A DNA stretch of 64,000 nt from a virus (lineage: Duplodnaviria > Caudoviricetes). The notes under the pieces were generated by a model that worked only from the letters and a program-made list of their open reading frames with translations, was not told the origin of the DNA and did not search any database. The translations under genes were made by a program, and so were the position numbers. Location: the IMG/VR virus record IMGVR_UViG_3300033076_001247, positions 1 through 64,000 of that record; one strand, written 5' to 3'. How positions within the stretch are numbered: position 1 is the stretch's first letter; the number at the start of each line of letters is the position of its first letter. This document shows, piece by piece, positions 6,754 through 17,958 of the stretch.

Positions 6754-7197
6754 CTACGCCCCAAACTGACGGGCGATGTCGAACCATGAATGCCCGTCCA
6801 CGCCGCCGCCGAACCGAAGCGCCCGGTCGTCGATGTAGACGTCTGCGACGGGTTTCCCCTGCCCGCCGTCGTCCACCGCGTCGACGAGCCCCTTGAGCGT
6901 CGTCGCGCAGAACTGCACCATCTGCTGATACCGGGCCTCGTGGAGCGGCTGCTCCGCCTCCCATGCCTTCCGGTCGAGCTTCACGATGCCGGCCCGCACA
7001 AGCGGGTCGAGCTCCGGGTCGATGCGAAGGGCAAGGTTTGCCCGCGCCGACGAGACCAGTACAACGTGGCCCGCCGCCTTCATCGCCTCGAGCGCCTTGC
7101 GGGCGCCGCCCATCAGCCGGAGCGGCGTCGTGACGTCCGAGAACTTCCGCCCCCACTCGTCTACGAGGGTGCTGTCGAAGTCGACTGCGATGATCAC
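6754..7197 (-). CDS. HAD-superfamily phosphatase
   Basis: Motif I IAVDFDSTL and motif IV KPVADVYIDDRA. Confidence 0.85.
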   Translation of the reverse strand: MIIAVDFDSTLVDEWGRKFSDVTTPLRLMGGARKALEAMKAAGHVVLVSSARANLALRIDPELDPLVRAGIVKLDRKAWEAEQPLHEARYQQMVQFCATTLKGLVDAVDDGGQGKPVADVYIDDRALRFGGGVDGHSWFDIARQFGA

Positions 7198-9131
7198 TTG
7201 GCTTCCGCCGCCGCCTTCTCGGCAAGCGCGGCCTCGATGTCGTCCTTGTCCCCGAGGAGCGCCTGTGCCTTTGCTTCGCTGATGCCGGGGAATGCGGTCG
7301 TCATAAGTCGGACGCCGGAGTCGTAGCCGATCTTGCCCGCGACCACGTTCTCGATCATCGACGACAGCGCCTCGATCTGGATACCTGTCATCGACTCGCC
7401 ACCGACCGGCGCCTCCGCACCGTCAGAGGACATGGACCCGTCTGCCTCGGGCGCGAACGGCGAACCGGCGCCGGGACCGTCAACGGTCTCGCCGGCAGGC
7501 AGGCCGGCCTCGATACCGCCAACGAGCGCCATCTGCTTGGCTTCCTCGTTGCGGATACGGTCGGACATCGCCTTCGCGTCGGCAACATGGAAGAACGGCG
7601 CGACGTAGGAGACGGCGGCCTCCTGGTCGACGAGCTTTCCAGCGAGTGCGGCTGCGGCTGTCTTCACCGCAACGTCAGCGTCCGTAATCGTCGGCTCAAA
7701 GTACGCCGGCCAGACGAGTTCGATGACCTCGCCCTCGCCAACCTCGCGCGCGCGCTTTCCGACGATCTTGCCCTCTGCGCTGCGGTCGATGTGCGGCGGG
7801 ATCATCACAATGCCGCGAACGACGCGGCCATCCTCGCCGACGCGCCCCTGCTCGACGTGGCGGATGGCGCGCAGCATCTTGCGGAGCAGCGGCTTGATTC
7901 CCGTCTCGCCCCACTGTTCGCGCAGGACATCGGTACGGGCGATCATCGCCGCGTAGCTGCGCTCGACCTCGGTGGCCGTTCGCTCTTTGCCGTCGCCATC
8001 CTCGAGTACACAGTGGCACGCCTCAAGGACGCGCTTGCGGTACAGGTCGGCGAGCTCCGTCGCGGCCTTCGCGCCGATGCCTTGCAGTTCAAGGTACTGA
8101 GCCTTGCCGCTCGACGGGAGCTGAATCGGGGCGCGGGAGCCTTTCGCGAGGTCGGGCGGGAGCGCGGCGTCGGTGCTGATGACGAGCGTCGGGTCGGCGT
8201 TCGCGATGGTCCCGATTTGCGCCTGGGCGAGAAGCTGGTCGATGGCGTGCAACATCTCGAGGACGCCGTGGTAGTCGCTGTCGCCGTCGGCGTCGTCCTG
8301 CGACGGGGTGTTCTGCACCCAGACGACCGGAACCTCGTTCAAGCCGTGGACGACCTCGTTCTCGACGGACCAGACCGGCGCCTCGTCGGTGACCGGGATG
8401 GAGCGGTAGACGATGTCGCGCTCGGCGTCGATGACTCGGCGATACCAGTACGGCACCTCTCGCCAGACGCCGGTCTCGCCGTCGTAGATCTCGCGCGGGT
8501 ACTGGTAGAGCACCTCGAGCCGCTTGAGCTCGTTGCCGGTGCGGGAGACGAAGGTCGGCGTCGCCCAGCGCGGGTCGAATATCTCGAGGTGTGGCTTGCC
8601 GGCGAGGATGGAGAAGCCGACGGCGACCGAGCCCATCGCGCCGCCAAAGCCGCGCGCCTGCATCCAGACCGGCCAGAAGCGGGACGCCTCGAGGAGCGCG
8701 CCGACGTAGTCATCCGTCGCGTCGTCGTCCTCAACCTTGACGCGCGGATGGCGCTTCTCGGAGAAAAGGAGGCTCGTGAAGCGGTCGACGATGACGCGGG
8801 CGAGCGGGTACGGCGCGGTCGGCTTGCGGAACCGAAGCGGCAGCATCGCGCCGAGGTCGTAGAAGCCCGGCGGGATGTACGCACCCGAGTTGATTGCCTC
8901 GCGGTCGATGCGGCTGATCTTCTGGCTGCCATCCCACTCCGACGAACAGGTCTCGTACTGCTGCGCCTTGTAGATGCTCCAGAGGTGATTGAGCTCGGTC
9001 TGACGCGGGCTCATGCCGAGGCGCTTGATACGCCCCATGATGTCGGGCTGGTCGGGGATCGCGCCCCCGCCCATCGTCGCGCCGAAGACGGTCTGCGTCG
9101 CCGTCCAGTCAACCAGTGTGCCGCTCGACAT
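7194..9131 (-). CDS. Portal protein (SPP1 gp6-like)
   Basis: 645 aa between terminase and gpF-like genes; IVDRFTSLLF, HGLNEVPVVWVQN and acidic tail. Confidence 0.85.
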   Translation of the reverse strand: MSSGTLVDWTATQTVFGATMGGGAIPDQPDIMGRIKRLGMSPRQTELNHLWSIYKAQQYETCSSEWDGSQKISRIDREAINSGAYIPPGFYDLGAMLPLRFRKPTAPYPLARVIVDRFTSLLFSEKRHPRVKVEDDDATDDYVGALLEASRFWPVWMQARGFGGAMGSVAVGFSILAGKPHLEIFDPRWATPTFVSRTGNELKRLEVLYQYPREIYDGETGVWREVPYWYRRVIDAERDIVYRSIPVTDEAPVWSVENEVVHGLNEVPVVWVQNTPSQDDADGDSDYHGVLEMLHAIDQLLAQAQIGTIANADPTLVISTDAALPPDLAKGSRAPIQLPSSGKAQYLELQGIGAKAATELADLYRKRVLEACHCVLEDGDGKERTATEVERSYAAMIARTDVLREQWGETGIKPLLRKMLRAIRHVEQGRVGEDGRVVRGIVMIPPHIDRSAEGKIVGKRAREVGEGEVIELVWPAYFEPTITDADVAVKTAAAALAGKLVDQEAAVSYVAPFFHVADAKAMSDRIRNEEAKQMALVGGIEAGLPAGETVDGPGAGSPFAPEADGSMSSDGAEAPVGGESMTGIQIEALSSMIENVVAGKIGYDSGVRLMTTAFPGISEAKAQALLGDKDDIEAALAEKAAAEAK

Positions 9132-9152
9132 TCACACGCTCCGCGTCGGTCC

Positions 9153-9326
9153 CTAGTCCACGACGAGTTCGACGCCGTATCGCTGCGCTCTGCTGACAAG
9201 TCGTCGGATTATTCGTGCCGCCTCGTCGCGCTCGTGCTGGTCGCCAAACTCGCCCCAAAAACGGGCGACGACGACGGCCTGCTGCCAGCGGGCGAGGCGA
9301 CGGCGGCCCCATGCTTTCGCGCTCAT
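9153..9326 (-). CDS. Hypothetical protein
   Basis: ATGA-coupled small ORF. Confidence 0.45.
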   Translation of the reverse strand: MSAKAWGRRRLARWQQAVVVARFWGEFGDQHERDEAARIIRRLVSRAQRYGVELVVD

Positions 9327-9529
9327 TCGGTCACCCACCATGTTGTCGAGTTGAGGGTCGGCGTTGTCGACGGCTTCCAGCCGCCGCAGCCCGAGCAGAA
9401 GACGACGGGCTGGCAGTCGCACGGACCGTCGTTCGTCTGGTGCTTGCCGTCGTAGCCCTCGCGGTGAATGACGACGGCCGTCGCCTCGGCGCAGGTCGCT
9501 CCGTCGCAGGCGTCGAGGTCGACGCTCAC
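9323..9529 (-). CDS. Small Cys-rich hypothetical protein
   Basis: GTGA-coupled; CDC and CSGC motifs. Confidence 0.45.
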   Translation of the reverse strand: MSVDLDACDGATCAEATAVVIHREGYDGKHQTNDGPCDCQPVVFCSGCGGWKPSTTPTLNSTTWWVTE

Positions 9530-9711
9530 GACGCCAACCAGACGCGGACGCCGAGCAGTGCGTAGCGCGGGTTGCGCCCCTTGGTCTCGTCGGCCTGCAT
9601 GATGCGCTCGACGGTCGCCCGCCACGAGCGGCGACCCGTGTGTATGCCGGGGTGGCAGATGCGGCGGCGGCGCTTCGTCCTGCGGCGAAGGAGCCAGATG
9701 CGGGCGCTCAT
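9526..9711 (-). CDS. Small basic hypothetical protein
   Basis: ATGA-coupled ORF. Confidence 0.4.
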   Translation of the reverse strand: MSARIWLLRRRTKRRRRICHPGIHTGRRSWRATVERIMQADETKGRNPRYALLGVRVWLAS

Positions 9712-9932
9712 TCGCGGTTCCGCTCGGCGTAGCCCGCCGCCTCTTCCTTGAGCCGTGCCAGACCGTCCTCAGTGTCCTCGTCGTCGTTTACGAACGACAG
9801 GTCGCAGCGGAGCTCGAGGCGGCCGTTCACCGCGTAGATCTCGAGGAGGCCGTCGTGGCCGGAGTCGAGCGCCCAGACGGGCAGGGCTTCGTCGGCGTGG
9901 ATTCGCTTGGGCTTCGTCTTGTTCTTTGTCAT
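9708..9932 (-). CDS. Hypothetical protein
   Basis: MTKNKTKPK...; ATGA overlap with the terL stop; SD GGAGG-like sequence not clear. Confidence 0.5.
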   Translation of the reverse strand: MTKNKTKPKRIHADEALPVWALDSGHDGLLEIYAVNGRLELRCDLSFVNDDEDTEDGLARLKEEAAGYAERNRE

Positions 9933-12109
9933 CGGCGTCGGAGGTCGAGGTTGAGGACTTGGGCGACGGGCGTCGCGACTTGCGGAAACAGTTGGTCGTA
10001 GGCGGCTGCGAGGGCGTCGACCTGGTCGTCGTGCAGGTCGCCGACGCCAGTGAAGGCGAGCACCTCCTCGACGAACGCGTTGCTCCATGCGGCGTTCATC
10101 GGCACGCTGATGCGCGAGGCGTTCCACGCGGCGGCCGCATTCTGAGACCTGAGAAACTTGTCTGAGCGCGCCGGCATGGTCTCGATGGTGACGCCCATCG
10201 ACTGCATGAGCTGTGCGACGCCGGCCTCCGTGCCGCCCGTGTACCAGCGCATCGGGGCGGCGTAGCGGGCCTTGAGCGAGGCGAGTTGCTGCGCCATCTG
10301 CGGCGCCTCGAGCTGCGCCCGGACGACGTCGAGGACGTAGCAGTGGCCTTGCCCATCGGCGGCGAGGACGACGGCCACCGAGTAGTCCGCCCGGCTCTTG
10401 GCCGTGTACGCAAGGTCGACGCCGATGGCGACGCGCCAGACATGCGACCGGACGACGGTCGTCTGCGGGTCGTAGAGGCGGACGTCTCGGAAGACGGCGC
10501 CGCCTCGAGGGCGCGGCTCGCCCATATAGAGGGAGGCCCAGCTGTACTCGCCGAGCGCCTCGCGCTGCTCCTTGAGCCAAGCGGGCGAGTACCGCTCGGG
10601 CCAGAGCGGGGCGCCCTCGGGCGAGACGGCCTGCAGGTTGACCCGCTCCCACCCGTGCTGCTTGACGAGGCGGCCGGCGAGGTCATCCTCGTGCCAGCGG
10701 GTGTGGACGACGATGACGGAGGCGGCCGGGTTGAGGCGGGTCTTGGCGACGTCGGTAAAGAACTGCCACACCCGCTCGCGCTTGAGCGCGGACTCAGCCT
10801 CGACGCGGTCCTTGTAGGGGTCGTCGATGACGAAGATGCCGTCGACGCTCTTGCCTGTGAGCTGGCCCGAGACGCCTTCGGCGATGAGCCCGCCGCCTCG
10901 AGCGGTGCGCCACCGACGGAGCGCCGCCTGGTCGCTCATCTCGACGCCGGCCGAGTCGGTGATGGACCGGATGCGCCGGCTTTGGTCGGTCGCGAAGTTA
11001 CCGGCGTAAGTGACGTAGGCGTGCGTTCGCGTCGGGTCTTGAGCGAGGTGCCACGCAAGCGCGTGCATGATCGTCTCGCTCTTGCCGTGCTGCGGCGGGG
11101 CGGAGACGACGGCTCGGACCGGCTCGTGGCGGGCGCGCTCGAGGAGGGCGACAAGGGGCGCGAGGTGGCGCGGGGCGATAAGGGATCCGCCGCTGACGCG
11201 CTCGATGAACGAGTTCAACGGCTCGGCGGCGGTCCGCATGTCGGCGCTCAGGATGGGCGCGACGAGCATCCGGCGCTGCCATGCCGACTCGTCCATGTCC
11301 TTCTTGCGCCGCTCGACGCGCTCGAGGTTCCACTTCTCGGGCCACGTCGGGGCGCCTGCAGCGTCGACGACCGGCGAGCGGACGATCTGCACGTCGGGCT
11401 GCGAGGCGAGTCGGGACACGGCGTCGTCCGGGTGCAGCGGCGTCCCGAGGGCGACGACGGCCCCATAGGGCGAGACCGACGCAAACAGGACCGCCTCGAA
11501 CCAGTCGCGAATGAGCTGGCGGGCGCCCGGCGTGCGGACGTGCTCGTCGGCGAGGGCGTCGTCGATGACGAGCAGGTCGATGGGGGCGCGGGAGACGAGG
11601 CCGAGGCCGGTCCCGACCGCCTGGACGGACGGGTCGCGGTGGACCCTGCCGGCGACCGCGAGGCTGCGGGCCTTCGGTTCCCCGTCGAGGCGCAGGTCGG
11701 GGAAGACGTGGCGCAGCTCGGGCGACGAGTCCAGGTAGCGGGCGACGAGCCCGAGGACCGTCCGAGCCGCCGGCAGGGTGCGCCCGACGATGACGATGCG
11801 GGCGTTCCTGTTCTTCCCGAGGGTGTGCAGGATTCGCGAGACGGACCAGAGCGACCGGCCCGACTGGTCGTGCGCCCAGAGGACGGTGCGGCGGCTGCGC
11901 TCGGCGGTGAGGTGCCACCGGATCTGCTCGCCCGAGAGCTTGACCTTCTCGCCGGTGGCCGTGTCGCGCAACACCATCTCCGCAAACGACAGCGGATCGG
12001 CGGCGGCGAGCGCGTAGTGCGCCTGCCTCGCCCGCTGCCCGGCGCGGCGGAGTTCCACCATCGCAAGGCGCTCGGCCGTCTCGCGGTCGTAGACCGACGG
12101 GTTGGTCAC
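9929..12109 (-). CDS. terL: Terminase large subunit with two tandem ATPase domains plus an RNase H-like nuclease
   Basis: Walker A APPQHGKS, Walker B FVIDD, HTRWHEDD, nuclease GVDLA...HDDQVDA, plus an extra N-terminal ATPase-like domain. GTG start overlaps the methylase stop. Confidence 0.9.
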   Translation of the reverse strand: MTNPSVYDRETAERLAMVELRRAGQRARQAHYALAAADPLSFAEMVLRDTATGEKVKLSGEQIRWHLTAERSRRTVLWAHDQSGRSLWSVSRILHTLGKNRNARIVIVGRTLPAARTVLGLVARYLDSSPELRHVFPDLRLDGEPKARSLAVAGRVHRDPSVQAVGTGLGLVSRAPIDLLVIDDALADEHVRTPGARQLIRDWFEAVLFASVSPYGAVVALGTPLHPDDAVSRLASQPDVQIVRSPVVDAAGAPTWPEKWNLERVERRKKDMDESAWQRRMLVAPILSADMRTAAEPLNSFIERVSGGSLIAPRHLAPLVALLERARHEPVRAVVSAPPQHGKSETIMHALAWHLAQDPTRTHAYVTYAGNFATDQSRRIRSITDSAGVEMSDQAALRRWRTARGGGLIAEGVSGQLTGKSVDGIFVIDDPYKDRVEAESALKRERVWQFFTDVAKTRLNPAASVIVVHTRWHEDDLAGRLVKQHGWERVNLQAVSPEGAPLWPERYSPAWLKEQREALGEYSWASLYMGEPRPRGGAVFRDVRLYDPQTTVVRSHVWRVAIGVDLAYTAKSRADYSVAVVLAADGQGHCYVLDVVRAQLEAPQMAQQLASLKARYAAPMRWYTGGTEAGVAQLMQSMGVTIETMPARSDKFLRSQNAAAAWNASRISVPMNAAWSNAFVEEVLAFTGVGDLHDDQVDALAAAYDQLFPQVATPVAQVLNLDLRRR

Positions 12110-12549
12110 GGACAGGCTCGGGCGCGGAAGGTCAGGAGCATCGACGGGAAGGGCGCGCCCACCTTGGCGTCGCCGAACTTGAGCCGACCGCGCAGGAACT
12201 CGACGGCGCAGTCTGGGTTGTGCAGGCAGTGGTCGTGGAACCACGCGACGTCGGTGCGGCTCGGGACGAGCATCACAACGACGGTCGACGGGGCGTCCTT
12301 GACCGACTGCGCGGCCTTCTCGACCCACCGGCCGATGCCGCGCCCGTAGGGCGGGTTGCACCAGGCGCGCTCGCCGGCCCACGACTGCGCGAGGCCGTCG
12401 GCCGCCTCGTCGTAGAAGCGGGCGCATTTGGCGTTGCCGGCGTCGGCCGCGACGTCGACGGTGAACCGCCAGACGGCATCGAGCCGGTCGAACAACGCCT
12501 GCGGCGTCGCCCACTCGACGGTCTTGGACTGCGCGATGTAGCCGCTCAC
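12106..12549 (-). CDS. Phage N6-adenine DNA methyltransferase (Dam-like)
   Basis: WATPQ...F.VDVAA...WCNPPYG...VVMLVPSRTD..WFH...FLRGRLKF. Confidence 0.9.
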   Translation of the reverse strand: MSGYIAQSKTVEWATPQALFDRLDAVWRFTVDVAADAGNAKCARFYDEAADGLAQSWAGERAWCNPPYGRGIGRWVEKAAQSVKDAPSTVVVMLVPSRTDVAWFHDHCLHNPDCAVEFLRGRLKFGDAKVGAPFPSMLLTFRARACP

Positions 12550-12839
12550 GCGCCGGTCTCAGGCTGGTAGCGGACGCCACAGAACGGGCAGTACCGGATG
12601 GGCGATACCGTGACCTTGCCGCTCGGGTGCAGGCGGCGGATCTGGTGATACGACCGGAGTTCCGGCCGCTTACCGCGCAGGGCGAGGCCCGACAGCGCCA
12701 TGTCCTCGCAGCAGTCGGCCCGCTCGGTCTCGTCGTCGGTGAGCCTGTCGCGGGCGGCGGCCTGCCGCTTGTTCTCGGCCTTGTGGGCGATTCGGCGCGC
12801 CGCGTCGTGCATCGCGCTGGCGATCTCCTCGGCGGTCAC
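12546..12839 (-). CDS. Hypothetical protein with C-terminal YCPFCG
   Basis: CC...YCPFCG; GTGA-coupled. Confidence 0.55.
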   Translation of the reverse strand: MTAEEIASAMHDAARRIAHKAENKRQAAARDRLTDDETERADCCEDMALSGLALRGKRPELRSYHQIRRLHPSGKVTVSPIRYCPFCGVRYQPETGA

Positions 12840-13093
12840 AGCTGCACCTCGGGGTTGGCCTTTGCCGCCTCGGCCTTTATGGTCTCGACGAGCCCCGCGA
12901 CGCGGTCGCGGCAGGTCTGGTCGTGGAGGGCGCCGAAGAGGTGGATGGTGCGGTTGATGTCGCGCTCCGACGGGGTGCGACGCCCCGGCGAGACGAGCGG
13001 CTGCACGGTCCCGCAGAGGCGGCACTCGACGGAGGTGACCCGCCCGCGCGGGTGCCGGCGGACGACAACCTGGACGTGGTCGGGCCTTCTCAT
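12836..13093 (-). CDS. Hypothetical protein (CxxC...H..C)
   Basis: ATGA-coupled; possible Zn site. Confidence 0.55.
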   Translation of the reverse strand: MRRPDHVQVVVRRHPRGRVTSVECRLCGTVQPLVSPGRRTPSERDINRTIHLFGALHDQTCRDRVAGLVETIKAEAAKANPEVQL

Positions 13094-14010
13094 GCCTCTG
13101 CCACCTTTGTTCGCCCTCCGAGGGCGTTCTGGGATTCGACGACGAGCCCGAGCTGCCGGGCGCGCTGGACTGCGGCCTCGGCCTCTTGGACTGCGGAGAC
13201 GGCCTCGTCGACGCTGATCTCGTGTTGGACGACGCCGATGATGGCCTGCGGGGCGCCGACGTGCAGGCGCTCGAGTTCGATGACGACCTGCGCCGCGAGC
13301 GTCGCGTCCTTCACCGTGCGGGATATCTGCCCGATGGTCGAGGCCGCCTTGTCGATGGGTATCTGGCCGGCGTCGATGGCGGCGCGGAGCTGGTCGGCGA
13401 GTTTGGCGAGGCCGGGCATCAAGCGCATCGTCCCGCCGAGGGTGCCGATGGCCGCGCCTCGAGCCAAACGGACGAGCTGCGCCTCCTGCGTGCGCGCCTC
13501 GAGCGCCTGCTGCCTGGCCTTCTCGCGCTCCGCCTCCTCGGCGGCTTCCTTCGCCGCTCGAGCTCGGGCGGCTTCCTCCCGCTCCCGGAGCGCCTGCTCG
13601 GCGATGCGCCGGCGCAGCTCGTCGGCCTCGGCCTCGGCCTTTTGAATCTCGGCGACCGTGTCGGCCTGCCGGCGGGCCTCGACGTCGGCGAGGGCGGCTT
13701 GCCGCTTGGCGGCGGCGCGCTCGTCGGCTGCCTGTTGCTTCGCTGTTCGCTTTCGCTGGCGCTCAGCGTCGACCTGCGACTCGACGGCGGCCTCGAGCGA
13801 GGCGCGGACCTCCGCCGAGTCTTCGGTCAGAACGAGTGCGATGGGTCGCGCCCACTCCCAGCGGTCGGGCCAGCCGACGTTGTAGGCGCGGCGCGCGGTG
13901 ACACGGGAGACATCGGCGGCCTTGGCCGCTCGGTGCCAGTTGGTCCCGTGCGTTCGGAACGCCTCGACGAGCCGCAGGTAGGTGTGCTTGTCGATGAAGC
14001 GTTCAGGCAT
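13090..14010 (-). CDS. Putative terminase small subunit (N-terminal HTH plus long coiled coil)
   Basis: HTH-like NWHRAAKAADVSRVTARR; first gene of the packaging operon. Confidence 0.55.
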   Translation of the reverse strand: MPERFIDKHTYLRLVEAFRTHGTNWHRAAKAADVSRVTARRAYNVGWPDRWEWARPIALVLTEDSAEVRASLEAAVESQVDAERQRKRTAKQQAADERAAAKRQAALADVEARRQADTVAEIQKAEAEADELRRRIAEQALREREEAARARAAKEAAEEAEREKARQQALEARTQEAQLVRLARGAAIGTLGGTMRLMPGLAKLADQLRAAIDAGQIPIDKAASTIGQISRTVKDATLAAQVVIELERLHVGAPQAIIGVVQHEISVDEAVSAVQEAEAAVQRARQLGLVVESQNALGGRTKVAEA

Positions 14011-14011
14011 C

Positions 14012-14132
14012 TTCCGACACCCTACTTCCGACATGTCGCAAAGAGCAAGCGAGGTGTCGCAAGTTGGCGGTCGTAATCCTGTCGAATCGCGCTAGGCCGC
14101 GCCGGTACTGAACGAAAACTCAAGATGCGACA
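14012..14132. repeat. Array of TT(G/C)CGACA half-sites including a near-perfect 16-bp palindrome
   Basis: TTCCGACA at 14012 and 14026, TGTCGCAA at 14034 and 14055, ATGCGACA at 14125. Confidence 0.6.
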
Positions 14133-15169: not shown

Positions 15170-15663
15170 TTGGTAAGTATTACCGCACGGCCGGTGTCGG
15201 ACTGAAGCAGATTCCAGAGCGGCAGCACCTCGTCTCGGTTGACCCCGTGAGTCGTGAGCCAATGGCACCACTCAGCCAGCTTCTCGACGCGGCTCGTGAT
15301 GATGGTCCGCAGGCCGCGCTCGTGCCGGTTCCGCACCAGCATGACGAAGTCGTAAAGGACGCCGGGGTCGATGTACCCGTGCGCCTTGTAGAAAACGACG
15401 ACCGGCGCGTTCTGAACCCGGAGCATCTCGTCGTCCGACGGGATGCTCATGTTCGGTTCAATCATGTCGCACCAGGGCGCGCCGACCTTGTTGTCGGGCG
15501 TGAGGCTCGCCATGAGGTAGCGGGCGACAGCCGGCGCCGAGATGTCGGCCGGGTCGTCGAGCACGAGCAAGGTGCGGAGGGTGGGCGTCTCGACGAGGCG
15601 CTGAACGGCGCCCTCGGCGGCGCGGTGCAGGGGCGAGCGTGCTTTCGGGGCGATGAACTTCAT
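15166..15663 (-). CDS. Degenerate DnaC/IstB-like protein
   Basis: RHERGLRTIITS aligns with RHDNGRKTIITT of the neighbouring gene; no Walker A motif. Confidence 0.55.
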   Translation of the reverse strand: MKFIAPKARSPLHRAAEGAVQRLVETPTLRTLLVLDDPADISAPAVARYLMASLTPDNKVGAPWCDMIEPNMSIPSDDEMLRVQNAPVVVFYKAHGYIDPGVLYDFVMLVRNRHERGLRTIITSRVEKLAEWCHWLTTHGVNRDEVLPLWNLLQSDTGRAVILTK

Positions 15664-16424
15664 TCAGCGGACTCCTGCGTGTGGGTGGGTCGGATGTCGT
15701 CGCCCTTGCAGACAACGAAGCGGGTGGCGGTCGGGTCGGACAGGCGCGACATGAGGCTGTCGGTGTACCGCAGGTCCATGAACTGGTTGCGGTACTGGAC
15801 GGCCTGCTCGGGTGTGACGACCTTGGACGACCGGCGAAGGTTGGTCGTGATGATGGTCTTCCGGCCGTTGTCGTGGCGGTCGAGGATGAGGGAGAGCACC
15901 TGGTCGCTCGCCCAGTCGCCCGACTCGCGGCCGAGGTCGTCGACGACGAGCAGGTGAGCGTCGATGCAGGCGTCCCGCTTGGCGGTCCATCGGTCGCCGA
16001 CGGTGACGCGGGAGGCGTGGAGGAACTGGCAGACCTTGTGCTTTGCCATGTCCCAGAGCGACGGGTGGGCGAGGGGGTAGATGGCAGCGTAGGTCTTGCC
16101 ACGACCGGCCTTGCCGGCGAGGACGAGGGTGGCGAGCTCGGGGCGGGCGAGGAAGGCAGCGACAGCCTCGACGGCGGCTTGACTGCCCTCGTGACCGGGC
16201 AGGGCCGGGCAGAAGGCGGGGCCGGTCGCGATGGTCTCGACGAGGCGCTCGTTCTCGACACCGGCGAACCGGAGGCAGCCCCGGCGGCGGTCGGAGACGT
16301 CGATGGTGACGACGACGGGCTCGGGCCGAGCGACGGGCTCCGGCTCGGGCGGCATCTCGACGCGCTCTTCGAGTTCGGGGCCGGAGTAGTTTTCCCAGGG
16401 GGCGAGTTCGGACAGGGGCTTCAT
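15660..16424 (-). CDS. DnaC/IstB-like AAA+ helicase loader
   Basis: Walker A GKAGRGKT, Walker B LLVVDDLG, TIITTN. Confidence 0.85.
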   Translation of the reverse strand: MKPLSELAPWENYSGPELEERVEMPPEPEPVARPEPVVVTIDVSDRRRGCLRFAGVENERLVETIATGPAFCPALPGHEGSQAAVEAVAAFLARPELATLVLAGKAGRGKTYAAIYPLAHPSLWDMAKHKVCQFLHASRVTVGDRWTAKRDACIDAHLLVVDDLGRESGDWASDQVLSLILDRHDNGRKTIITTNLRRSSKVVTPEQAVQYRNQFMDLRYTDSLMSRLSDPTATRFVVCKGDDIRPTHTQESAE

Positions 16425-16448
16425 GGCGGGTTCCTTTCGGGCGGCGGC

Positions 16449-17486
16449 TTAGGCTTCGCCGGCCCAGAGGCCGTCGAGGTCGCGACCGGTGATGTGCTTG
16501 GAGGGTTGCGGGCCGGCGGACTGGACGACCTTGGCCTTGAGACCGGCGGCCTTCTGGGCGGCCTCGGGCGCGACGAGGGCTCGGATGGGGAGGTGAGCGC
16601 TGTACGGGTCGGTGTGCAGGGTCTCGAGCACCCAGACGAGCTCGTCGATGCCGCGCGCCTTGCGCTGCTGAAAAAAGAAGATCCGGTCTTCCTTCGTCAA
16701 CGCGGGCGGGAAGGGCGGCCGCTTGAGCTCGACGTAGCGGGCCACCCAGCGGTCGAGGTCGGCCGTGGCGGTCGGTTCGTCCTCGGGCTCTTCGGGGCGC
16801 TTGCGTCGACGGTCGGGCTTGCCGGTGGCCGGCAGGAGGCTTGCCTGTCCGGTGACGTCGACGACGGGTGTCGGGCGGGCGGGCGCTGCCGGCTGCATCG
16901 CCGTCGGCTGCGGGTCGGTCGTCTCTGCCAGCAGGAGGGGCGCCGGTCCGAGGTCGCCTTCCGCGCCGGCGTCAGCCGGCGAAGGTTCGGGAGAAGAGAC
17001 GAGAGGCGAGACACGAGACACGAGAGGCGAGAGACGAGAAGCGAGAGACGAGATACGAGAAGACGGATCATCGGCTTGCGTCTGCTTGCAGATGATCGCA
17101 GGTGCAAGCAGGGGCGTGCCGTTGCCGACAATGTCCTCCGCGTGCAAGAGTTGCGCGCCCTCGGGGCTCGGGTACTTGCTCTTGCCGGCGCGGACGTTCT
17201 GGTAGGTGTGCCAGTTCGAGAACCCGATAAACCTCGCGCCCTTGACCTCGTAGGCGTGCAGGATGTCGACCTCGACCAGCTTCGCGATCCAGGACAGGAC
17301 GTGCTGGTCGGTCACCTCGGGCTTGAGCGGGTAGGCTCGCCCCCGGATGACCGGCGGGCGGGCGTCGAACCGGCCGTAGTCGTCCGAGATGAGGAGGAGA
17401 CGGAAGAAGAACCGCTCCTCGTCGGCCGTGAGCTGGTCGATATTCGCGCTAACGAGAATGGCGTCCTTGATGATTCGGTTCGGCAT
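16449..17486 (-). CDS. Phage replication initiator
   Basis: N-terminal MPNRIIK...FFRLL..SDDYGRF winged-helix type, low-complexity linker with repeats, followed by a DnaC-like gene. Confidence 0.8.
   Translation of the reverse strand: MPNRIIKDAILVSANIDQLTADEERFFFRLLLISDDYGRFDARPPVIRGRAYPLKPEVTDQHVLSWIAKLVEVDILHAYEVKGARFIGFSNWHTYQNVRAGKSKYPSPEGAQLLHAEDIVGNGTPLLAPAIICKQTQADDPSSRISSLASRLSPLVSRVSPLVSSPEPSPADAGAEGDLGPAPLLLAETTDPQPTAMQPAAPARPTPVVDVTGQASLLPATGKPDRRRKRPEEPEDEPTATADLDRWVARYVELKRPPFPPALTKEDRIFFFQQRKARGIDELVWVLETLHTDPYSAHLPIRALVAPEAAQKAAGLKAKVVQSAGPQPSKHITGRDLDGLWAGEA
16999..17061. repeat. Nine tandem 7-bp RCGAGAN repeats, candidate replication-origin iterons
   Basis: ACGAGAG GCGAGAC ACGAGAC ACGAGAG GCGAGAG ACGAGAA GCGAGAG ACGAGAT ACGAGAA inside the initiator gene. 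Confidence 0.7.
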
Positions 17487-17490
17487 GGTC

Positions 17491-17958
17491 CTACCGGCCC
17501 AACTGGTGGGAGAGGAGGTCGATAACGTCTGGGGATGAAACGGCTTCCATCATCTCGACAATGTGCTCGTCCTTCAGATCGCAGGCAGGCAGCTTGCTCA
17601 GTTGGCTGCAAACGACTGTCGCCGATGACATTGGCATGTCGGCAGTGACTCCAGAGACACGAATGAGGCCGGTAATACCATCGCCCTTCATGTACCCCTG
17701 TCTGAAAAAGTCCCGCGTGATCTCGGCCAGCTCTTTGCGCGTCAACGGTTCCCCGTTGTCGTGTCGCAGGTCGAGGCGCTCGTAGACCTGTGCAAACGTC
17801 AGCCGGTACAGCCCCGGCACCGCCGGATAGGTGTGTGGACCTGTCGTGATGAACATCCACGCGAGCTTCTGATGCGAACTCATGGCTCGGAAGTACGCAT
17901 CCGCCCACGGTTCCCATCGGGACATCTGGACCAGCTTCGCCTTTTCGTATCCTGCCAT
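17491..17958 (-). CDS. Initiator-like N-terminal wHTH protein
   Basis: W.D..F..MS...KL.WM...T.P....PGLY pattern, resembling phage replication protein N-termini. Confidence 0.55.
   Translation of the reverse strand: MAGYEKAKLVQMSRWEPWADAYFRAMSSHQKLAWMFITTGPHTYPAVPGLYRLTFAQVYERLDLRHDNGEPLTRKELAEITRDFFRQGYMKGDGITGLIRVSGVTADMPMSSATVVCSQLSKLPACDLKDEHIVEMMEAVSSPDVIDLLSHQLGR

Follow-up and report, generated by a model that had tools for sequence, protein, structure and literature searches.

A phage terminase large subunit that carries a degenerate ATPase domain from a second terminase lineage

Why should a phage keep two ATPase domains in its terminase large subunit (TerL), a protein that normally has one ATPase and one nuclease? 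The question is raised by a gene in a 64,000-nucleotide stretch of viral DNA (Duplodnaviria; Caudoviricetes), positions 1 to 64,000 of the IMG/VR record IMGVR_UViG_3300033076_001247, which we call the window; the record itself is a linear viral contig of 74 kb with an estimated completeness of 56%. On the minus strand of the window, positions 9929-12109 form one uninterrupted frame of 726 codons that encodes two TerL-type ATPase domains and then a nuclease. An original prediction made from the letters alone had read the gene in this way, and translation confirms that neither a stop codon nor a frameshift separates the domains. We found that the first ATPase domain (hereafter the N-domain) comes from a different TerL lineage than the rest of the protein, and that it has lost many residues conserved in that lineage yet stays under purifying selection. 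With moderate confidence, we propose that it is a vestigial domain, kept on an imported motor as an adaptor through which the resident small terminase docks or is regulated.

Two groups of TerL recur below: clade A, a T7-like group of ~500-amino-acid (aa) proteins (~485 to 560 aa), and clade B, with proteins of ~440 to 470 aa. The gene and its parts are as follows.

9929 to 12109, minus strand: whole TerL gene, 726 aa plus stop, GTG start; phrog_38 match at E 4e-109, 13 full-length homologues
11234 to 12109, minus strand: N-terminal degenerate ATPase domain of clade A (T7-like) origin, residues 1-292; phrog_38 match at E 6e-31, AlphaFold2 model, Foldseek matches, tree support of 100, and ratio of nonsynonymous to synonymous substitution rates (dN/dS)
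11852 to 11875, minus strand: degenerate Walker A motif AHDQSGRS, residues 79-86, with Arg85 (codon 11855-11857) in place of the P-loop Lys
11555 to 11590, minus strand: Walker B segment RAPIDLLVIDDA, residues 174-185, with D183 and D184 retained, Arg176 replaced by Pro, and an Arg at R174
11180 to 11233, minus strand: linker or junction, residues 293-310, of low model confidence
10475 to 11179, minus strand: canonical ATPase domain of clade B, residues 311-545, with Walker A APPQHGKS at 11078-11101
9932 to 10474, minus strand: RNaseH-like nuclease domain, residues 546-726; Terminase_6C match, phrog_5573 match at E 2e-30

All of the motifs that the original prediction quoted are present, far beyond chance, both in the N-domain (AHDQSGRS at residues 79-86, LLVIDD at 179-184, GTPLHPDD at 222-229, and TWPEKW at 255-260) and in the second ATPase domain (APPQHGKS at 337-344, FVIDD at 426-430, HTRWHEDD at 469-476, and LWPERY at 502-507). 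The domain profile search that it had proposed as a check detects both ATPase regions: phrog_38, the PHROG TerL profile, matches residues 23-292 (E 6e-31, profile positions 266-527) and also residues 316-712 (E 2e-77, profile positions 294-708), so that the ATPase region of the profile is matched twice. Pfam reports only the second ATPase (Terminase_6N, residues 336-541, 23.9 bits against a cut-off of 22) and the nuclease (Terminase_6C, residues 562-705, 30.8 bits against a cut-off of 22.6) on the whole protein, and a Pfam search of the N-domain alone gives zero matches even at E 10; PHROG profiles and structure alone reveal the domain. Compared with each other, the N-domain and the second ATPase of the window protein share 25% identity over 132 residues (E 1e-10).

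A homologue search covering 5.8 billion proteins recovered the double architecture, at 725 to 732 aa, in 13 protein clusters of 58 to 94% identity from JGI, ENA, NCBI, and Logan assemblies. All 13 keep an uninterrupted reading frame through the junction; we also fetched independent contigs, and homologues share the start residue at which the GTG of TerL overlaps the stop codon of an upstream methyltransferase gene as GTGA. Shorter matches of 436 to 491 aa (>90% identity) come from cut-off contigs of 1.4 to 2.2 kb. Similarity to clade-B TerL begins at residue ~295, where the single clade-B protein P0019 aligns from its residue 25, and residues 292-300 have a predicted local distance difference test score (pLDDT) below 50 in the AlphaFold2 model. 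A stop codon or chimeric join near position 11240, raised beforehand as a possible flaw, is not there: the junction and its frame recur in 13 clusters from independent assemblies, and the gene can be accounted for without any stop, frameshift, or chimeric join. Among 50,697 deposited phage records, none has the double form; in two records that seemingly covered >80% of the query, both query ATPase domains hit one ~430-aa gene, and these are not double forms.

The N-domain had been expected to fold as an ASCE (additional strand, catalytic glutamate) ATPase, and structure prediction agrees. The AlphaFold2 model of residues 1-300, built from a 98-sequence alignment, has a mean pLDDT of 93.6 and a predicted template modeling score (pTM) of 0.90; it places the AHDQSGRS loop between strand 74-79 and helix 85-99, has LLVIDD closing strand 177-183, and puts GTP after strand 212-222. 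The best Foldseek match of this model in the PDB is PhiV-1 TerL (8dgc_E, E 5e-12, TMq 0.67), and the further top matches are all TerL ATPases (P74-26, T4 gp17, Sf6 gp2, HK97, and D6E), with DEAD-box helicases lower; the top entries 8dgc_E, 7ks4, 2o0h, 4iei, and 6z6d range from E 5e-12 to 2e-6. The degenerate Walker A aligns with the GKS of T7 gp19, and Walker B residues D183 and D184 are invariant in all 98 aligned sequences. At the level of the model, then, the N-domain is confirmed as a true ASCE/TerL ATPase fold. A model of the full-length protein, made with nine sequences (pLDDT 57.7, pTM 0.40), is too poor to show domain packing.

The two ATPase domains have separate origins. In an exhaustive phmmer search, the best matches of the N-domain outside its own family are N-terminal ATPase domains of ~485- to 560-aa proteins (33 to 37% identity, E ~1e-40), and the clade-A profile matches T7 gp19 at E 6e-24 and PhiV-1 TerL at E 3e-23. 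The C-terminal part is closest to single TerLs of ~440 to 470 aa. A maximum-likelihood tree of 72 ATPase domains contains a split with support of 100 that separates the N-domains, all in clade A, from the second domains, which all belong to clade B. Because the N-domain is far closer to clade A (33 to 37%) than to its own second domain (25%), the double form is a fusion of two lineages, as the original prediction had suspected, and a recent tandem duplication is ruled out by the tree, in which the two domains fall on opposite sides of that split.

Within clade A, the N-domain stands out by what it has lost. Position 85, in Walker A, is Lys in 89 of 90 clade-A single TerLs and Arg in all seven double forms aligned. 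Position 176, two residues ahead of the Walker B strand, is Arg in all 90 of the former, and in the seven double forms it is Pro (six) or Ala (one), with an Arg at 174 instead. In P74-26 TerL, R139 lies at a similar distance ahead of Walker B and is a trans-acting finger (PMC5389665); going by position rather than structural alignment, R176 is a candidate equivalent. In total, of the 58 positions that are conserved at a level of at least 75% in clade A, the double forms have lost 17, including K85R, R176P, R211S, W145P, and H232S; H62, E82, and K117 are replaced too. The Walker B aspartates, the P-loop glycine G84, H226, D229, and the WP..W motif are kept. Given the loss of the P-loop Lys, Arg176, and other conserved residues, the N-domain is probably no longer a hydrolyzing motor subunit; it is probably catalytically dead and may still bind nucleotide.

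Loss of these residues has not been accompanied by decay. Between the window and relatives at 91 to 96% identity, dN/dS is 0.09 to 0.22 in the N-domain, 0.10 to 0.12 in the second ATPase, and 0.16 to 0.33 in the nuclease. At longer range the N-domain diverges faster, with 46% identity to P0017 compared to 72% for the second ATPase, and its stem branch is long (0.6 to 1.0 substitutions per site). Faster long-range divergence and a long stem, combined with purifying selection, indicate that the N-domain changed function rather than decayed; with a dN/dS well below 1 and a reading frame that continues through the junction in each of the 13 clusters, the domain is not a relic.

Judged by its sequence, the remainder of the protein (residues ~295-726) is a complete canonical TerL of clade B, with catalysis and metal binding as predicted properties. 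The second ATPase is matched by phrog_4758 at E 4e-42, its Walker A K343 and Walker B D429 and D430 (FVIDD) are invariant in nine double forms, and the nuclease acidic residues D565, D694, D695, and D698 are likewise invariant in double forms. Double forms are without the first ~24 residues of single clade-B TerLs. In P22, the binding site for the small terminase is the first 23 residues of TerL, and the small terminase of lambda binds TerL too (PMC9611059).

Three neighboring genes bear on the role of the N-domain.

13090 to 14034, minus strand: putative small terminase 'TerS-A', 314 aa, with a helix-turn-helix (HTH)-like N-terminus, an Ala/Glu/Arg-rich coiled coil, and a conserved C-terminal domain
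12106 to 12549, minus strand: DNA methyltransferase gene (phrog_111, E 3e-47), upstream of TerL, context only
7194 to 9131, minus strand: portal protein (phrog_145, E 3e-11), the basis for 36 related IMG/VR loci and a portal tree

Between TerL and the putative small terminase gene lies the methyltransferase gene, whose GTGA overlap couples it translationally to the start of TerL. Searches of Pfam and PHROG with open reading frame (ORF) 13090-14034 returned no small-terminase match, and the protein atlas gave only weak leads below 0.9, so its role is deduced from its position. Locus L003, which has a distant double TerL, carries a homologue just upstream of it (46% and 55% identical in its two terminal domains), and homologues share the motif pattern Y..L..AFR..PGN...AA....TA..AW..GWP. 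In at least 12 loci a member of this family is the gene next upstream of a single clade-A TerL, and one also lies upstream of every double form for which sufficient sequence is available. When 11 members were made into a profile, it recovered others outside its alignment (L012, L030, and L052, at E 3e-33 to 6e-49) and none beside single clade-B TerLs or other TerL types. We consider the co-occurrence of this gene with the N-domain a regular feature of the double loci, and ORF 13090-14034 a putative small terminase and the proposed partner of the N-domain, with binding to TerL and recognition of the packaging site (pac/cos) as predicted functions. On the same strand, a 159-aa ORF at 12546-13025 has no family match, ends in a zinc-ribbon-like CPFCG, and is patchy in the close relatives L009 and L010; upstream of the packaging genes lie genes for a DnaC-like helicase loader (15660-16448, minus strand, phrog_50) and a replication initiator (16449-17549, minus strand, phrog_5810).

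We compared TerL types across the 36 related loci, whose portals are 37 to 92% identical. The double-TerL loci form one clade in the portal tree (support 98). A single clade-A TerL is present in 20 related-portal loci, with two more having a clade-A TerL elsewhere on the contig, and three have other TerL types. The sister clade of the double forms (L027-29, with G001; support 100) carries a single clade-B TerL, a 464-codon frame 59% identical to residues 295-726, together with a portal 51% identical to that of the double forms. Its TerL starts after an upstream stop codon, as does that of P0019, and upstream of it is a 150-aa protein that matches a recognized small terminase, phrog_4102 (E 5e-25); searches of the 74-kb record and of the window found no small terminase of the phrog_4102 type. 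The pairings are thus a clade-A-type upstream gene with clade-A TerL, phrog_4102 with the single clade-B TerL, and a clade-A-type gene with the double form. The clade-B tree gives the same sister relation as the portal tree, and two more distant single clade-B TerLs adjoin Mu-type portals.

Because the sister clade has a single clade-B TerL, a clade-B TerL was already in the common ancestor of the two groups. Because clade A is the usual TerL with this portal type, the N-domain is most simply a remnant of a resident TerL; it is either such a remnant, later lost by the sister, or a re-acquisition, and its long branch within clade A makes the two indistinguishable. A need for the N-domain in portal docking, which we also considered, is weakened by the sister, in which a clade-B TerL without an N-domain works with a 51%-identical portal. 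Around these portals, L027 has a methyltransferase gene (phrog_67) between TerL and portal, and L034 (4910-6691) and L035 (5583-7364) have a portal homologue with one in-frame stop in each contig, while their TerL belongs to another type (phrog_2) and follows a gene related to the small terminase of the sister lineage. In the window, the ~800-nucleotide interval between TerL and portal (9131-9929) contains no ORF with coding-like GC content at third codon positions; the interval is variable, reaching ~1.9 kb in the close relative L023 and holding a 257-aa gene in L003.

Other unusual terminases occur among the relatives. A second double-ATPase TerL, the singleton P0125 (782 aa, same domain order; ENA ERZ1761150, an 8.4-kb contig), has an intact N-domain that retains the Walker A Lys, R176, R211, and H232. 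Both of its halves group away from the window's double-form family in the tree, no double relatives were found for it, and it could have arisen by a separate, recent fusion or through chimeric assembly. Inteins (Pfam Intein_splicing and LAGLIDADG_3) are present in relatives of both clades (P0020-P0022; P0145, P0154, and P0166 among others), and in the clade-A carriers the match breaks in two just past the P-loop (query residue ~88), a typical insertion point. Two loci, L005 (4001-5005) and L060 (5632-6636), have a stand-alone 334-aa clade-A ATPase-only gene (P0137). Upstream of it is a relative of ORF 13090-14034, and a LAGLIDADG-like ORF separates the two; within 16.6 kb there is no nuclease domain of either clade, and the locus may be a split terminase. 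Such stand-alone ATPase-only genes indicate that terminase domains are shuffled as modules.

What, then, would the N-domain do? In the reading that we favor, a clade-B TerL would have recombined into a phage with a resident clade-A TerL. Residues ~295-726 would supply ATP-driven translocation and DNA cutting, and residues 1-292 would be the clade-A ATPase domain, its own nuclease lost and its hydrolysis probably lost as well. The most likely reason for its retention would be a role in docking or regulating the phage's resident small terminase of clade-A type, encoded at 13090-14034, coupling the phage's own DNA-recognition subunit to a foreign motor that is without its N-terminal ~24 residues. 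We hold this adaptor reading at about even probability, and several observations weigh against it. The Walker B aspartates are intact, an Arg, R174, is found just two positions away from where R176 was lost, and replacing the Walker A Lys by Arg does not prove that ATP binding or all hydrolysis has gone. The upstream gene family lacks a match to annotated small terminases, its role being drawn from position and the HTH-like N-terminus; part of its BLAST similarity is low-complexity coiled coil, with weaker E-values when SEG is on; and ~8 to 10 clade-A loci with upstream sequence show no family member at E<1e-3. The sister contig has only 1.4 kb upstream of its TerL, and the placement of the N-domain inside clade A is not settled by the tree, owing to its long branch.

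Of the two functional readings that the original prediction had offered, a pseudo-ATPase serving as adaptor or regulator gains from the combination of residue losses with purifying selection, and an active double-ring motor now looks unlikely. For the latter, a genuine two-tier packaging motor in which both domains are active, speak the complete TerL ATPase fold and Walker B in both domains, the conservation of the N-domain under selection, and P0125, which has the same architecture and keeps all 17 residues in its N-domain, the Walker A Lys included. P0125 is, however, a single sequence on one 8.4-kb contig without double relatives, and in the window's family all seven double forms aligned (from 13 clusters) have Arg in place of the P-loop Lys and Pro or Ala in place of Arg176; the long N-domain stem branch (0.6 to 1.0) fits relaxed catalytic constraint, and conservative Lys-to-Arg changes in Walker A of T4 gp17 are reportedly null. 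We consider two active tiers improbable. A somewhat better prospect, although still well short of the adaptor, is a pseudo-ATPase with a structural or DNA-holding role, which would bind ATP without hydrolyzing it and provide a permanent grip on DNA or a scaffold for ring assembly on the active ring. The same residue losses and purifying selection fit this reading, as do the retained fold, G84, and Walker B aspartates. In P74-26 TerL, moreover, tight binding to DNA requires the ATPase domain and can be achieved by it without the rest of the protein, but only when ATP is bound (PMC5389665), so that a site that binds without hydrolysis could lock the grip. Such a role leaves unexplained why the double form is paired with a clade-A-type gene and the sister, without an N-domain, with a recognized small terminase; and R176 and R211, interface or arginine-finger-like residues that would be needed for ring contacts, are lost.

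Two further explanations would take the N-domain out of the working protein altogether. Translation from an internal start near Met291 could give a normal TerL of ~436 aa, leaving the N-domain as a separate product or a dispensable relic; an in-frame ATG does occur at residue 291, on the domain boundary, and databases hold 436-aa gene calls (P0015 and P0016). Those calls come from contigs 1.4 kb long and truncated on the upstream side, and the frame is open across the junction in 13 of 13 clusters. The start that had been suggested at DMRTAAEP fares poorly: no clear Shine-Dalgarno sequence precedes the ATG, and the Met is not conserved in double forms at 58 to 60% identity. We regard this as very improbable. 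A chimeric join of the terminase genes of two phages, by assembly or sequencing error, might be suspected in a metagenomic viral contig whose TerL halves come from different lineages, but the same junction and frame recur in the 13 clusters (58 to 94% identity; JGI, ENA, NCBI, and Logan), and both halves codiverge with the portal; an artifact is effectively refuted. We also considered an anti-defense decoy against terminase-sensing Avs proteins, since the best structural match is from an Avs3-terminase complex, and found no support for it.

Set beside known systems, the window protein is in part familiar. Like canonical TerL (T4 gp17, with Terminase_6N and Terminase_6C), residues ~311-726 comprise an ASCE ATPase (Walker A GKS, Walker B, and C-motif) and an RNaseH-like nuclease, above Pfam cut-offs and in terminase-portal gene order; unlike it, the protein has an extra ~290-aa TerL-type ATPase domain in front and is without the first ~24 residues of its nearest single-domain relatives. 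The likeness to T7-like TerLs (T7 gp19, PhiV-1; PDB 4bij and 8dgc) lies in the N-domain, which together with its ~500-aa relatives matches T7 gp19 (E 6e-24), has PhiV-1 as its best structure, and shares the HxExGK[ST] P-loop context, the GSRxDhhhhDD Walker B region, and the WP..W lid motif. The difference is that the N-domain has no nuclease of its own, carries Arg where the P-loop has Lys and Pro where an invariant Arg stands before Walker B, and shows ~15 further losses. As a functional analogy only, the two-tier ATPase NSF, whose D2 ring is nonhydrolyzing, also has tandem domains (D1 and D2), one catalytic and one degenerate yet conserved; NSF belongs to AAA+ rather than to the terminase/ASCE branch, and the window protein is a fusion of two lineages rather than an internal duplication. 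Split and intein-interrupted terminases resemble it in their modularity, with P-loop inteins in both clades and the stand-alone clade-A ATPase genes of L005 and L060, whereas the window's extra module is fused in frame and retained, neither spliced out nor separately encoded. Large terminases, inteins in them, and split forms are already known. In the papers available to us on tandem, duplicated, pseudo-ATPase, and chimeric terminases we found no TerL with a second, degenerate ATPase of another lineage, which does not prove that none has been described.

Structural understanding of how TerL is engaged and controlled by small terminases is still poor, and models of the pair are speculative without a high-resolution TerS:TerL complex (PMC9611059). 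Rather more tentatively than the adaptor role itself, we suggest that the double TerL represents a terminase replacement fixed at an intermediate stage, in which the dead resident ATPase serves as a specificity adaptor that preserves packaging-site recognition; if so, it would provide a natural, modular small-terminase-binding domain that is separable from motor activity. Were both sites active after all, this would be the first two-tier terminase motor. In the favored reading, a dead ATPase domain beside an unrelated active motor would be a natural separation of partner and DNA recognition from translocation, an example of a packaging motor being exchanged while compatibility with the phage's own recognition subunit is preserved, and a sign that pseudo-enzyme domains arise in viral packaging machines.

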